Shown here: in pieces, positions 1,868-48,125 of the stretch
Layout of the letters: the number at the start of each line of letters is the position of its first letter
How positions within the stretch are numbered: position 1 is the stretch's first letter
From: Candidatus Zambryskiibacteriota bacterium
GTDB taxonomy: Bacteria; Patescibacteriota; Minisyncoccia; Phycocordibacterales; WO2-35-19
Direction: 5' to 3'
Assembly (NCBI GenBank): GCA_003233455.1
Contig: QILQ01000012.1
Location: forward strand, 4,441 to 68,440
Length of the DNA: 64,000 nucleotides
Translations under genes and position numbers: made by a program
The notes under the pieces: model-generated
Databases searched by the model: none
What the model saw: only the letters and a program-made list of their open reading frames with translations
What the model was told of the DNA's origin: nothing

Positions 1868-2645
<778 letters not shown>

Positions 2646-2670: not shown

Positions 2671-2722
2671 ATTATATCATGGTCTTGTGTTTTGACACAA
2701 TGATAATTTACAACACAAGTGT
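2671..2722 (-). promoter_or_regulatory. Promoter (-10 TATAAT) with two palindromic operator-like boxes (C-box-like) upstream of the C gene
   Basis: Minus-strand TATAAT at 2676..2671; palindromes TTGTGTtttgACACAA (2685-2700) overlapping the -35 position and ACACaaGTGT (2713-2722). Confidence 0.35.
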
Positions 2723-2739
2723 AAAAATATGATAGCGAA

Positions 2740-2986
2740 CCCGAACGACAAAACCATTTCCTTACCTTTCTTTTCTTTCGGTGGAGGGGTCTGGGGAGGA
2801 GCCGAACAAAAAATTGAAAGGAAATGGTTTTGGTCGGGTGGTCGCCCGAGGTACGAGGGCGACGGTGCGGTGGAGTTGAGAGAGTTACCACTAAACTCTG
2901 CCTGCGGAGAGAGTGGTCAGAATTATTTCAGGCTCTCGCCGTGGGGCGTGCGCCCGCAGGTGCACGCATTAAACAGCACGCACTTC
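2740..2986. ncRNA. GC-rich, hairpin-dense ~250 bp element of unknown identity (candidate structured RNA or cluster of palindromic repeat elements)
   Basis: Strong local GC excess in an AT-rich genome; nested perfect stems e.g. CGACAAAACCATTTCC/GGAAATGGTTTTGGTCG, GTCGCCC/GGGCGAC, CCTGCGG/CCGCAGG, GCGTGC/GCACGC; six-frame ORFs here are Arg/Pro/Gly-rich junk. Confidence 0.3.
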
Positions 2987-3060
2987 TGGTGCGGGATGGG
3001 GTAATCGAAACCCCGACTCAAGTTTGGAAAACTCGCATTTTACCACTAAACTAATCCCGC
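2987..3060 (-). tRNA. tRNA-Gly (anticodon UCC), CCA encoded
   Basis: GCGGGAT-TA-GTTT-AGTGGTA-AAAT-G-CGAGT-TTTCCAA-ACTTG-AGTC-GGGGT-TTCGATT-ACCCC-ATCCCGC-A-CCA cloverleaf. Confidence 0.85.
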
Positions 3061-3105
3061 AATACAAGCCATTTTAACATATTTTGTGATAACATCTAAT
3101 TAATT

Positions 3106-3177
3106 GTCGCCGTAGTTCAATGGATAGAACAAGACACTCCTAACGTCTAGATGCAGGTCCGATTCCTGCCGGTGGCA
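3106..3177 (+). tRNA. tRNA-Arg (anticodon CCU), no encoded CCA
   Basis: GTCGCCG-TA-GTTC-AATGGATA-GAAC-A-AGACA-CTCCTAA-CGTCT-AGAT-GCAGG-TCCGATT-CCTGC-CGGTGGC-A. Confidence 0.8.
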
Positions 3178-3190
3178 CATTATGCAAATC

Positions 3191-3214
3191 AAAAATCCCC
3201 GGAAGGGGATTTTT
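3191..3214. terminator. Bidirectional intrinsic terminator between tRNA-Arg and hup
   Basis: AAAAATCCCC-GGAA-GGGGATTTTT perfect hairpin flanked by A/T runs. Confidence 0.6.
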
Positions 3215-3266: not shown

Positions 3267-3539
3267 TTACCGAACCGCTTCTTTCAAAGCTTTAGCGGCA
3301 CGAAACTTGGGAACTCTCATCGCCGGCACTTCTACGGCTTCGCCAGTGCGAGGATTTCTAGCCGTCCTAGCTGCTCTTTGCTTAGTTGAGAATATGCCTA
3401 ATCCGGCAATTGAAACTTCGCCCCCTCCTTTAAGAGCATCAACAATATCGTTTATAATAGTTTCAACCACTTCTTCGGATTGAACTTTAGTTCCACCAAG
3501 TTTTGTATGAACGGAATTTGCTAAATCTGCTTTATTCAT
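3267..3539 (-). CDS. hup: HU family DNA-binding protein
   Basis: MNKADLANSVHTKLGGTKVQSEEVVETIINDIVDALKGGGEVSIAGLGIFSTKQRAARTARNPRTGEAVEVPAMRVPKFRAAKALKEAV. Confidence 0.9.
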   Translation of the reverse strand: MNKADLANSVHTKLGGTKVQSEEVVETIINDIVDALKGGGEVSIAGLGIFSTKQRAARTARNPRTGEAVEVPAMRVPKFRAAKALKEAVR

Positions 3540-3777: not shown

Positions 3778-4113
3778 TTATTTTTTAGAATCTAAATATT
3801 TTTGAAGTTCTGTTTTAAGAGTAGGAATTTCTTCAACCACAGTTTTCCAAACCATTTTCAAACTAATATTAAAATATTCGTGAACCGCCATATTTCGAAA
3901 TCCCAAAATTTTAAACCAAGGAAGTTCTACTTTTAATCTTGTCTCTTCTGATATTTTCCTTGCATCCTCTCCAATAACAACTAATTGCATAATAATAGCA
4001 CTTTGTGTTTTTTGATCAGATAAAAAAATTTCTTGTTTTTGATCCTTAATAAAACTTTCTATTTTAGAAACAGAGTCAAGAATTCTTAATATGTAAACTT
4101 TTTCATTTTTCAT
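3778..4113 (-). CDS. HepT-like HEPN toxin (DUF86)
   Basis: R-x4-6-H motif FRNMAVHEY; follows and overlaps a minimal nucleotidyltransferase gene. Confidence 0.55.
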   Translation of the reverse strand: MKNEKVYILRILDSVSKIESFIKDQKQEIFLSDQKTQSAIIMQLVVIGEDARKISEETRLKVELPWFKILGFRNMAVHEYFNISLKMVWKTVVEEIPTLKTELQKYLDSKK

Positions 4114-4390
4114 ATATAGTTTTAAGTTCAGGAACAATGTAGGGTTTCATAAATTTATCAATACTATCTTCAGTTACCACATCAACATCTCTGCCTAGAG
4201 CTTTTATTAAATCTTCTTTTAAATCCATAAAAGTAAACAAGCTTAGTGACTTACCAAGTCTGACTACTAAATCTACATCACTATCTTCCCTCTGTTCACC
4301 ACGAGAGAAAGAGCCAAATATATCAGCTTTAGTAATACCGTATTTTTCTAATACGGGAAATATTTTAATTTTGATATCATCAATATTCAT
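4103..4390 (-). CDS. MntA-like minimal nucleotidyltransferase antitoxin
   Basis: GSFSRGEQREDSDVDLVV nucleotidyltransferase motif, 95 aa. Confidence 0.6.
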   Translation of the reverse strand: MNIDDIKIKIFPVLEKYGITKADIFGSFSRGEQREDSDVDLVVRLGKSLSLFTFMDLKEDLIKALGRDVDVVTEDSIDKFMKPYIVPELKTIYEK

Positions 4391-42353: not shown

Positions 42354-42467
42354 CCTCCCTAACTCTCCTTACTTTAAGGAGGGAACCGCGCAATAAACTC
42401 TGTTAAACAACTGAATAATAAATATGAGTCACCCTCTCCTTAAGGTAAGGAGAGGGCTGGGGAGAGG
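42354..42467. repeat. Two copies of GC-rich palindromic hairpin element (CTCTCCTTAcTTTAAGGAGGG and CCCTCTCCTTAaggTAAGGAGAGGG) in yebC-ruvB intergenic region
   Basis: Direct reading; same family as 23673, 46365, 47863. Confidence 0.6.
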
Positions 42468-42487
42468 TTAGATAATGCAGTTATAAT

Positions 42488-46488: not shown

Positions 46489-46517
46489 TTGACTTTTGGT
46501 TTTGACTTTGTTATAAT
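46489..46517 (+). promoter_or_regulatory. Consensus sigma70-type promoter TTGACT-17-TATAAT
   Basis: TTGACT 46489-46494, 17-nt spacer, TATAAT 46512-46517, ~25 nt upstream of ATG 46543. Confidence 0.5.
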
Positions 46518-46542
46518 TCAAATAGAAAGAGAGAGGTGTATT

Positions 46543-47430
46543 ATGAAAACCATTTTCTTGTGTGTTTTTTTGGCCACCATGCTCACCTTTACGATGAGTG
46601 GGTACGGTAGTAATCAGATTACGACGGGTGCTAAAAAGGCTGCCACCGTGGCAACCAAACAGGCGAAAAATGCTCAAAAGGTTGCCTCATCGGCAACCAA
46701 AAGAGCAGCCAAAAAGGTTGCAGAAGCCCGAAGGGCTGCGGTGAATGTCGCAGAAAAACCCAACAGCAAGAAGGCAAAAAAGAGGGCCTCCATTGCCATA
46801 GAGGTTGCGAAGGTAACACTCGAGCAGGCGAAAAATGCTCAAAAGGTTGCCGAGCAAGCTGCTGAACAGGCAAGGCTTGCCAGAGAAGCAGTTGCTGAAT
46901 TCAAGAGAACCGAGTCCCGTGCTCGATGGGAGGCTCAGCAACAGAGATGGAAGAGAAATCTCAATCTCTCATGTCCCGCCGGTGGGTGGGAGAACGTTGT
47001 CATTGAGCCGGAACTCGGAAGGGACTCCTTTCGAGTCAGTGGCAACAGGGTTGCTAGATTTTTGCTGGCTCGGTATATGGGGCTTGTAACAGCCTTCAAT
47101 CCATACCCAGATGTCGTTAATATTGACGAGGGTAGTCGAGCCCTCGTTCGCGACATGTGTCCCAAAGGGAAGATATCCCTGGTGGCCACCTTGGGGTGGG
47201 ACGCTGGGATTCTTGGTGGAGATGATTATGAGGAAGAGGAATTCCTTTGGACTGTTAGCTTGTACAAGAATGGGCACTTGTACAAGGGAAAAAGTCCGCG
47301 TCTACTCCTGTATGTATATCAATGGGTCAAGGAAAAAAAGCCTGCCCCATGGACAATGGAAGTGGACGACATTGATCGTCCTCTCCCCAAACATCTCCCG
47401 GAGCATAGGGAGGGGGGGCAGTGGAGATGA
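46543..47430 (+). CDS. GC-rich secreted Ala/Lys-rich coiled-coil protein (compositionally foreign)
   Basis: Signal peptide MKTIFLCVFLATMLTFTMSG; repeated KKAA/AKNAQKVA segments; GC3-rich codons unlike neighbours. Confidence 0.45.
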   Translation: MKTIFLCVFLATMLTFTMSGYGSNQITTGAKKAATVATKQAKNAQKVASSATKRAAKKVAEARRAAVNVAEKPNSKKAKKRASIAIEVAKVTLEQAKNAQKVAEQAAEQARLAREAVAEFKRTESRARWEAQQQRWKRNLNLSCPAGGWENVVIEPELGRDSFRVSGNRVARFLLARYMGLVTAFNPYPDVVNIDEGSRALVRDMCPKGKISLVATLGWDAGILGGDDYEEEEFLWTVSLYKNGHLYKGKSPRLLLYVYQWVKEKKPAPWTMEVDDIDRPLPKHLPEHREGGQWR

Positions 47431-47630: not shown

Positions 47631-48125
47631 ATGAAAGAATTTTTATCTAAAAATGTAGAAGAAACAGCCAAAATTGCTACTGATTTTGGAAAGCAATTAA
47701 ATAGAATAAACAGAAAGGCACCTTCCGCAAAAGCTACTGTTGTGGGGTTGTATGGAGAATTGGGAAGTGGTAAGACTGCTTTTATGAAATATTTAGCGAA
47801 TTTTTTTGGTATTAAAGAAACTATCCAAAGTCCAACTTATGTAATTATGAAAACTTATAAAACCTCACCCCCCAGCCCCCTCTCCTTAACAAGGAGAGGG
47901 GGAGAAGAAAACTCCCGTTCTCTTGGGAGTGAGGTGTTCCAACATTTAATTCATATTGACGCTTATCGGATAGAAAAAGAAGATGAGATGATAAATTTAG
48001 GTTGGCAAGAAATTATATCTGACCCTAAAAATTTAATTTGTATAGAATGGCCGGAAAATATCTCAGGTATAATGCCTGAGCATACTATGATAAAATTTAA
48101 ACAAAAAATGACGAAAGAAAAATAG
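47631..48125 (+). CDS. tsaE: tRNA threonylcarbamoyladenosine biosynthesis ATPase TsaE with in-frame repeat-element insertion
   Basis: VGLYGELGSGKTAFMKYL...IQSPTYVIMKTY...IHIDAYRI...LICIEWPE; 22-aa insert SPPSPLSLTRRGGEENSRSLGS encoded by repeat. Confidence 0.7.
   Translation: MKEFLSKNVEETAKIATDFGKQLNRINRKAPSAKATVVGLYGELGSGKTAFMKYLANFFGIKETIQSPTYVIMKTYKTSPPSPLSLTRRGGEENSRSLGSEVFQHLIHIDAYRIEKEDEMINLGWQEIISDPKNLICIEWPENISGIMPEHTMIKFKQKMTKEK
47863..47936. repeat. GC-rich composite palindromic repeat element inserted in frame in tsaE
   Basis: CCTCACCCC...CCCCCTCTCCTTaacaAGGAGAGGGGG...ACTCCCgttctcttGGGAGTGAGGTG. Confidence 0.7.

Follow-up and report, generated by a model that had tools for sequence, protein, structure and literature searches.

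A near-invariant, structured non-coding element divergent from a restriction-modification controller gene in Parcubacteria

Introduction

Between a small XRE-type helix-turn-helix (HTH) gene (2433-2642, - strand) and a tRNA-Gly(TCC) gene (2987-3060, - strand), in a 64-kb stretch of a Candidatus Zambryskiibacteriota genome (contig QILQ01000012.1; the whole stretch is referred to below as the window), lies a GC-rich, hairpin-dense sequence of about 250 nt to which a first-pass annotation, made from the letters and the open reading frames (ORFs), could assign no family. Beyond tRNA-Gly follow HU (3267-3539, - strand) and tRNA-Arg(CCT), and the sequence does lie, as that annotation had it, at the junction of the tRNA genes with an island. 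Here we show that the region is a genuine structured non-coding element, maintained by selection and very probably functional, whose constant partner is the HTH gene, a relative of the controller (C) protein genes of restriction-modification (R-M) systems. We give a probability of a little under one half to a reading in which the element acts as a structured, C-gene-linked RNA, and weigh this against a role at the level of DNA, an accumulation of palindromic repeats, a peptide or toxic mini-mRNA, and a divergent copy of a known RNA.

Control of R-M by C proteins is regarded as a well-understood, purely protein-operator circuit, and the C-box regions that have been described are short operators. 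To our knowledge, a near-invariant structured element of 135-250 nt that extends beyond the operators and exceeds the C gene in conservation falls outside the C-box architecture as described, and a literature search found no published account of such an element.

Methods

DNA records compared with the window carry L numbers (L002, L183, etc.). Relatives of the element were sought first through about 120 HU neighbourhoods of Parcubacteria. The route that yielded homologues was a protein database search with the translation of a spurious + strand ORF (2729-3004), in which homologues appear as similar false ORFs annotated by gene callers elsewhere. A first search returned 14 homologous 'proteins', and a second returned 17 cluster representatives among 1.84 billion. 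Four distinct DNA copies beyond the window were obtained, namely L183, L184 (to which L185 is identical), L186, and L187, all of which align with the window. RNA families were searched with Rfam 15 (4227 models), both at gathering score and at E<10, and tRNA and tmRNA (transfer-messenger RNA) genes with ARAGORN. Folding energies were compared with those of dinucleotide shuffles. The conserved part of the element was described by a covariance model, R1, to which the alignment used for covariation was fitted.

Results

Composition and folding

The element has a GC content of 0.556 (2751-3000), against 0.26-0.39 in its flanks. A composition scan returned 2771-3035 (GC 0.56) as the top GC-rich segment of the whole window, with 2735-2986 set against a value of about 0.30, which bears out the description of this stretch as the most GC-rich of the 64 kb. 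Both strands fold far better than their shuffles, a check proposed in the first-pass annotation: the + strand folds at -108.7 kcal/mol (z = -4.4) and the - strand at -90.6 kcal/mol (z = -4.5), and on neither strand did any of 200 shuffles fold as well as the element.

An inverted-repeat search located the following stems: I1 (arms 2749-2773 / 2808-2832), I4 (GTCGCCC / GGGCGAC; 2841-2847 / 2857-2863), I5 (CCTGCGG / CCGCAGG; 2901-2907 / 2954-2960), and I3 (GCGTGCGCC / GGTGCACGC; 2946-2954 / 2959-2967). The stems reported earlier thus all exist, except that the one given as a perfect 16-bp stem is not perfect; I1 consists of 13 perfect pairs (CAAAACCATTTCC / GGAAATGGTTTTG), a bulged G, and then CGA/TCG.

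A constant module and a variable 3' domain

The element is composed of a swappable GC-rich 3' domain behind a near-invariant module. The constant module (2735-2866, about 135 nt, modelled on the + strand) comprises a long interrupted hairpin and a short GC hairpin. In the former, 2749-2763 pairs with 2818-2832 (CAAAACCATTTCCTT / AAGGAAATGGTTTTG) to give the main stem, seen both as I1 and in the minimum free energy fold, with an outer helix at roughly 2739-2744 / 2834-2839. At its apex lies a G-rich mirror motif, GGAGGGG-TCT-GGGGAGGAG (GGAGGGGTCTGGGGAGG; 2783-2801, + strand), which on the + strand presents a GGAGG resembling a Shine-Dalgarno (SD) sequence and reads as a C-rich loop from the opposite, - strand. 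It is near-invariant in the five DNA copies (the window included), with a single G-to-A change, in L183. The short GC hairpin (GTCGCCC-N9-GGGCGAC; 2841-2863; I4 above and helix 5 of the model) is kept in L184, L187, L002, and L098 with an altered loop and a partly altered stem. Read along its sequence, the module consists of the 5' arm GCGAACCCGACCGACAAAACCATTTCCTTACCTTTC..., GGAGGGG-TCT-GGGGAGG, the string AACAAAAAATTGA, the 3' arm AAGGAAATGGTTTTGGTCGGG, and the short GC hairpin.

R1 scores 153.7 bits on the module of the window, where it finds one copy in 64 kb, and 93-166 bits on L183, L184, L187, and L186. Two distant sequences score lower, L002 with 55 bits (- strand; E about 3e-8) and L098 with 30 bits.

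The 3' domain of the window ('type A'; 2867-2986) is GC-rich, contains multiple hairpins, and ends exactly at the 3' end of tRNA-Gly. Its only relative is in L186 (125-337; about 87% identity); a few compensatory changes separate the two, and the strand signals conflict. An unrelated 'type B' domain is common to L184 and L187, and L183 carries a third type. BLAST between the domain types, in both orientations, detected no similarity, and the ideas of homology or of an inverted arrangement among them were dropped on that result.

Conservation and covariation

Among the window, L183, L184, and L187, the core of the module is 96-100% identical and its 5' arm 87-100%, compared with 69-86% for the C gene and 49-64% for the intergenic control region. 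Constraint on the non-coding core is therefore stronger than that on the protein gene next to it, and the divergence of the flanks excludes wholesale recent transfer. In L186 the 5' arm has been replaced and is unable to pair, and the loop and the 3' arm are unchanged; since these persist beside an arm that cannot pair, the sequence itself must be constrained, beyond pairing.

Covariation was assessed with the two distant sequences, L002 and L098, included. In the main stem (helix 2 of the model), 9 of the 15 pairs are changed on both sides in these two, 93% of cells are paired, and G-U pairs are lacking. Over the whole structure 91% of the cells of the alignment pair, and pairs changed on both sides number 17, compared with 6.1 +/- 1.9 in shuffles (0 of 500 reaching the observed value) and with no more than 5 on sliding the 3' partners. 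Given that the alignment was fitted to R1 and that the signal comes from two distant sequences, this is evidence for a conserved hairpin only. Decayed repeat DNA, which the first-pass annotation would have favoured had relatives shown neither conservation nor covariation, is at odds with the copies found in Parcubacteria and with their covarying long stem.

Coding potential and known RNA families

The homologous 'proteins' read the conserved nucleotides in at least three frames (ANPTDKTISLPFF...GGGVWGGAEQKIERKWFW; RTRPTKPFPYLSF...AEGSGEEPNKKLKRKWFW; AEGSGEEPNKKLK...; and ...KIEKEMVL...), which implies 1-nt insertions or deletions within the conserved part; these fall in A-runs. Past about 40 residues the false-ORF sequences are unrelated between copies. 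Judged by this comparison of reading frames, the conserved stretch is not protein-coding.

The Rfam search suggested at first pass returned no family at gathering score and no plausible one at E<10 for the window, L002, L022, L183, L184, and L186, the tRNAs excepted. The residual matches were microRNA and long non-coding RNA hairpin noise far under threshold. ARAGORN found no gene in 2735-2986, and hence no tRNA or tmRNA cloverleaf. The failure to recognise tmRNA, RNase P RNA, or signal recognition particle (SRP) RNA by eye is thereby repeated with models, and 'structured, with no annotation' remains an apt description of a sequence that folds strongly and draws a blank in Rfam. No canonical intrinsic terminator with a U-tract was found, the one weak candidate being a 5-bp site at the tRNA end (2993-2979, - strand); U-rich tracts follow the long hairpin on the - strand at 3-10 nt and are unconserved. 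Among the neighbouring genes in five contexts there is no reverse transcriptase, TnpB/IscB, or IS110 recombinase domain, and retron non-coding RNA, omega-RNA, and bridge RNA were ruled out because their cognate genes do not adjoin.

The controller gene, its cargo, and the neighbouring tRNA genes

The HTH gene encodes 69 amino acids and matches Pfam HTH_3 with E = 2.3e-15. It matches the PADLOC profile Control_protein over its full length (E = 1.6e-18; 2.8e-17 for the protein of L184), and the window protein is 90% identical to that of L183 and 61% identical to that of L184. By this profile match we identify it as an R-M controller protein gene. The divergent control region between it and the element (2643-2734) holds the C promoter and putative C-box palindromes. 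Palindromes resembling C-boxes, TTGTGT-N4-ACACAA and ACAC-AA-GTGT, can be read directly in the sequence (inverted repeats at about 2683-2725), and a promoter-like site, GTGTCA-16-TATAAT, occupies 2698-2671 on the - strand. The loci are homologous across the C gene, the intergenic region, and the module, up to a limit about 30 nt past the C stop codon; from this extent, the constant module and the divergent C gene make up a portable unit of about 0.5 kb.

What follows the C gene differs among loci: in the window, a split and truncated N6_N4 methyltransferase, a 54-amino-acid ORF, an HNH type II restriction endonuclease, and KilA-N; in L187, type III Mod and Res; in L183, an operon for an ATPase with an AAA_5 domain, with no PADLOC match; and in L184, aspS. 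Restriction and modification genes are thus present downstream of the C gene in the window and L187 and absent there in L184. The methyltransferase of the window (1868-2427, - strand) is divided between two ORFs that cover Pfam positions 1-36 and 67-159 of 221, with the C-terminal third gone, and the adjoining R-M system therefore looks decayed.

On the other side of the element, tRNA-Gly(TCC) (called by both ARAGORN and Rfam) abuts it with its 3' end and is co-directional with the C operon. In every context that is visible, a co-directional tRNA gene points at the C operon from the opposite side of the element. Spacing and identity vary: 0 nt from tRNA-Gly in the window, about 110 nt from two tRNA genes in L186, and about 170 nt from a long-arm tRNA gene in L184, with a further tRNA implied on the P0140 contig by the peptide 'GIRTHD', typical of antisense tRNA, at the end of the false ORF. 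The suspected tie to tRNA-Gly did not hold up, in that the neighbouring tRNA varies by genome and the C gene is the constant partner.

Two further features were observed in these neighbourhoods. In L184, a 19-nt inverted repeat (GCCCCGGACATTAGATGAG; 3283-3301 and 3438-3456), the second arm of which is the immediate 3' flank of the tRNA, encloses about 135 nt of AT-rich sequence that includes a bidirectional terminator. In the window, a HepT-like / nucleotidyltransferase (MNT) toxin-antitoxin pair (3778-4390, - strand) lies between L20 and HU, a position at which it is missing in several relatives.

Distribution and distant relatives

The element is not syntenic with HU in the neighbourhoods surveyed; L004 and L013 have HU, tRNA-Arg, and tRNA-Gly, with nothing of the element after tRNA-Gly, so that it is accessory and not universal. 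The walk along HU yielded only distant, differently built GC-rich elements (L002/L003/L014 and L098) and a partial leader match in L144. A DNA pattern scan of IMG/VR gave no match to a 29-mer of the core, a scan with the L002 leader motif gave a match in a coding region only, and BLAST against phage and plasmid collections returned nothing relevant to the element.

The distant relatives (L002:4375-4665, the same in L003 and L014, and L098:2515-2850) are found downstream of HU and lack a C gene. Common to them are a conserved leader of 45 nt (CCAAGCTCGAACCTATTT...), an outer GC stem, the long hairpin with its covarying pairs, and further hairpins with G-rich loops; neither matches an Rfam family. 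At the place occupied by tRNA-Arg(CCT) in relatives, L098 (2327-2460) retains just the tRNA 3' end (TGGTGCCACCGGTAGGAAT), together with a T-arm fragment in inverted orientation; no tRNA is called there by ARAGORN, and the gene looks disrupted. In L144, the decayed C-terminal remainder of a large serine recombinase, interrupted by an in-frame stop (2718-3191, - strand), abuts the 3' end of tRNA-Gly(TCC), and its 5' edge bears the leader sequence of L002 and L098; this arrangement suggests that tRNA-Gly(TCC) is an integration hotspot in the lineage. A recombinase remnant within the element itself was sought by tblastn with the L144 fragment, which matched L144 only. L022 has an unrelated GC-rich, hairpin-rich sequence of about 200 nt directly after the HU terminator (2955-3160); its GGGAAGTCCGG start was considered as RNase P CR-I and rejected, being a local hairpin with no Rfam match.

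Outside these loci, a further GC-rich segment of the window (46489-47430, + strand; GC 0.52-0.55) has overlapping ORFs on both strands, the longest of which (313 amino acids) has no Pfam match, begins with what resembles a signal peptide, and contains repeats rich in Ala and Lys; it may be of foreign origin.

Discussion

A proposed structured RNA of the C-gene unit

In the reading to which we give a little under one half, the element would give rise to a structured transcript of about 250 nt that forms part of the C-gene unit. Transcription would most plausibly begin on the + strand, from a promoter within the divergent control region that the element and the C gene share, and would then be coupled to the C operators. 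The hairpin RNA could protect the C-controlled restriction operon from read-through out of the strongly transcribed tRNA gene upstream, or could instead help to time expression of the operon, and the invariant GGAGG/GGA-rich SD-like loop might bind a highly conserved partner, e.g. the ribosomal anti-SD sequence or an RNA-binding protein. Of these parts, insulation or timing as the mechanism seems to us unlikely. Rather doubtful, if somewhat less so, is the broader proposal that an undescribed, near-invariant RNA is an obligate partner of R-M controller proteins in the candidate phyla radiation (CPR), with its GGAGG-rich loop engaging the ribosome or another universal factor.

Several observations favour the + strand: (i) a TTATAAT box stands upstream of the module in four of the five copies (L183, L184, L186, and L187), (ii) L186 has a terminator that works on the + strand only, ahead of the tRNA, (iii) the + fold is the more stable and contains 12 G-U pairs, against 3 in the - fold, and (iv) the type B domain has a GCAA tetraloop on this strand. 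For the - strand speak a GCAA loop in L186 and the tRNA-Gly of the window, the transcription of which should enter the element since the gene has no real terminator. The long stem, being purely Watson-Crick, carries no strand information.

A number of points weigh against an RNA of this kind. The -10 box of the + strand is degenerate in the window, the folding z-scores are equal on both strands, and two hairpin variants (window/L186 and L184/L187) give U-G on the - strand and C-A on the +, with one favouring the +. A purely Watson-Crick long stem fits a DNA hairpin equally well. The hairpin alone cannot account for the conserved sequence, given the non-complementary 5' arm of L186, and insulation or termination, for which there is no canonical U-tract terminator, leaves the invariant 95-nt sequence unexplained. 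The comparison comprises just five distinct DNA copies and two distant ones, in an alignment that is model-fitted.

A possible DNA-level role

The principal rival places the function in the DNA: the element would serve as the conserved terminus, or as the recombination platform, of a mobile R-M cassette that lands beside tRNA genes, its hairpin being read in single-stranded or cruciform DNA or its sequence being bound by recombinase or host factors, with cargo swapped behind a constant head. We regard this as fairly unlikely. The element does stand where tRNA 3' ends meet islands of differing cargo; in the window it begins right after the tRNA discriminator base and supplies the CCA, and in L004 neither island nor element is present at this same tRNA-Gly. 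The Watson-Crick character of the long stem and a sequence invariant in both loops and stems also fit such a role, and four of the six contigs break off no more than about 150 nt from the element, which suggests a strain-variable junction or an assembly repeat. The decayed serine recombinase abutting tRNA-Gly(TCC) in L144, next to L002-type element sequence, points the same way. Against these stand the lack of an integrase or transposase adjoining any of the copies, the variation in tRNA distance (0, about 110, and about 170 nt) and identity, unlike that of an att site, and the failure to find the core in IMG/VR or in the phage and plasmid collections. Moreover, no second copy or direct repeat is present in the window, the far end of the island lying outside it.

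Dispersed palindromic motifs

A pile-up of palindromic repeats was raised at first pass. As an accumulation, devoid of function, of GC-rich palindromic mini-repeats that resemble repetitive extragenic palindromic (REP)/BIME elements or Rickettsia palindromic elements (RPE), in a permissive gap by a tRNA gene, this is improbable for the element as a whole. The suspicion was correct for the apical motif, which belongs to a dispersed family, and incorrect for the 135-nt module, which is single-copy in the window. The motif had been reported to recur in a repeat near 42456, and window 42448-42465 indeed matches GGAGGGGTCTGGGGAGGA of the element with 4 edits; a 16-mer scan gave 2 matches versus 0.05 expected. 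The identical 18-mer GGAGGGGTCTGGGGAGGA occurs in the loop of an unrelated stem in L098, and L002 has GGGGGAG-TTT-GAGGGGG in a hairpin loop, inverted with respect to the other parts. The pattern CCCTCTCC-loop-GGAGAGGG-CT-GGGGAGAGG is found in short hairpins at 42430-42470 in the window and in L009, L016, and L138. All these motifs are purine mirror repeats with an adjoining pyrimidine arm, and from their sequence may form intramolecular triplexes or two-tier G-quadruplexes.

Further in favour of a pile-up, the G-rich hairpin modules of L002 and L098 are oppositely oriented, the 3' domains are interchangeable and mutually unrelated, and family copies occur at 42430-42470, within tsaE (47855-47935), and in L009, L016, and L138. 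It is contradicted by the single copy of the module in 64 kb, by conservation above that of the neighbouring protein gene, by a fixed partner and orientation, by compensatory changes in distant relatives, and by the mere 17 clusters among 1.84 billion representatives, which argue against a high-copy repeat. We accordingly rejected the whole element as a REP/REPIN/BIME-type repeat on the copy number of R1 and the cluster count, the apical motif alone fitting that description.

The dispersed hairpins were located at window 42430-42470 (+ strand), L009:2598-2618 and 3466-3483 (- strand), L016:1071-1088, and L138:817-866, and are built of a C-rich arm, a loop, a G-rich arm, and then a mirrored G-tract, often with a T-run; they may also be terminators. 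The copy in tsaE (ORF 47631-48125, + strand) is a GC-rich palindromic mini-repeat, CCTCACCCCCCAGCCCCCTCTCC-TTAACAA-GGAGAGGGGGAG..., that lies in frame and adds about 26 residues (TSPPSPLSLTRRGGEENSRSLGSEV), cutting the Pfam TsaE match into two stretches; it may be likened to the Rickettsia palindromic elements inserted in genes. Matches to the 18-mer GGAGGGGTCTGGGGAGGA in IMG/VR were confined to G-rich stretches of high-GC phage contigs and were judged coincidence. In seven of these eight contigs (L174-L181; GC 0.62-0.66) it lies inside a conserved G-rich tract, ggggtggggttgtt...agaaggggaggg, and in the eighth, L176, its context differs.

Less probable alternatives: a peptide or toxic mini-mRNA, or a known RNA

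A + strand small peptide or CreT-like toxic mini-mRNA, repressed by the adjacent HTH protein and serving as an addiction module for the restriction cassette, is still less probable. Such a product would use the strong SD-like GGAGGAG, a UUG or AUG start, and GC-rich codons rare in an AT-rich genome. Its appeal is that the element diverges from a small repressor of XRE type, an arrangement seen in many toxin-antitoxin pairs, that the invariant part has SD-like motifs and start codons, and that the ORFs are Arg-, Gly-, and Pro-rich through GC-rich codons. It is countered by poor spacing between the SD-like motif and the starts (12 nt to UUG and 1-2 nt to AUG), by peptides conserved in neither sequence nor length after about 11 residues, by the tolerance of frameshifting insertions and deletions within the conserved part, and by an HTH protein that matches R-M controllers and not antitoxins.

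A divergent copy of a housekeeping or regulatory RNA that models miss in CPR genomes (RNase P, tmRNA, SRP, 6S, a T-box or other riboswitch, or a tRNA-like RNA) is highly improbable, even for a GC-rich structured island beside tRNA genes in an AT-rich genome, which has a 13-mer (AGTTTAGTGGTAA, - strand) identical to the tRNA-Gly D-arm and a string (GGGTGGTCGCC) faintly like a T-box motif, given that these families have no match at E<10 in five copies, that ARAGORN finds no tmRNA, that the element is absent after the same tRNA-Gly in L004 and L013 and is linked to a mobile C gene, and that L186 carries a mutation in the D-loop-like GG and every other copy has C in place of the T-box-like U. Mimicry of tRNA through the 13-mer (AGTGGTA to AGTGATA in L186) and a T-box-like GGGTGGT (its U replaced by C in the other copies) were rejected individually on these changes.

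Comparison with described systems

Each of the nearest systems fails at least one defining feature. C-box regions are approached through a C-protein profile match over the full length, a position at the head of an R-M operon, and palindromes upstream of the C promoter. REP/REPIN/BIME and Rickettsia palindromic elements share the GC-rich hairpins in an AT-rich genome, the dispersed motif, and the in-frame copy in tsaE, but the module is single-copy in the window, rare overall, and fixed in gene partner and orientation. The orphan 'GC-IGR' non-coding RNAs of the Breaker laboratory (e.g. raiA, ROOL, and HEARO) resemble the element as GC-rich, strongly folding, conserved intergenic islands with covariation, often linked to mobile or defence genes, as here; the element differs from them in its lack of an Rfam match, its unusually high sequence invariance, and its modular 3' domain. 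The attL/attR arms of tRNA-targeting islands are likewise conserved non-coding sequences, set directly against the 3' end of a tRNA where an island of variable cargo begins, whereas here no integrase is near, tRNA and spacing vary, and the sequence is GC-rich and hairpin-dense with a covarying stem, att arms being AT-rich with arm-type repeats. CreTA (type VIII toxin-antitoxin) offers a small structured RNA candidate with SD-like motifs, divergent from a likely repressor and linked to defence, but the repressor here is an HTH protein and not Cascade, and the copies compared yielded no conserved rare-codon mini-ORF. Whether it acts as RNA or DNA, the element is therefore classed as an undescribed kind of conserved structured element.

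Conclusions

A non-coding element that outdoes the C gene in conservation, travels across type II, type III, and other operons, and faces a tRNA gene would point to an unrecognised component in the regulation, insulation, or movement of restriction cassettes, at least in Parcubacteria. It provides a new, well-defined candidate non-coding RNA for CPR bacteria, in which few have been catalogued, and model R1, five DNA copies, and clear boundaries are available for it. The in-frame mini-repeat in tsaE suggests, in addition, that RPE-like elements are present in CPR genomes. If the element is indeed an RNA and an obligate partner of R-M controller proteins, restriction cassettes would have an RNA layer to their control, establishment, or mobility.

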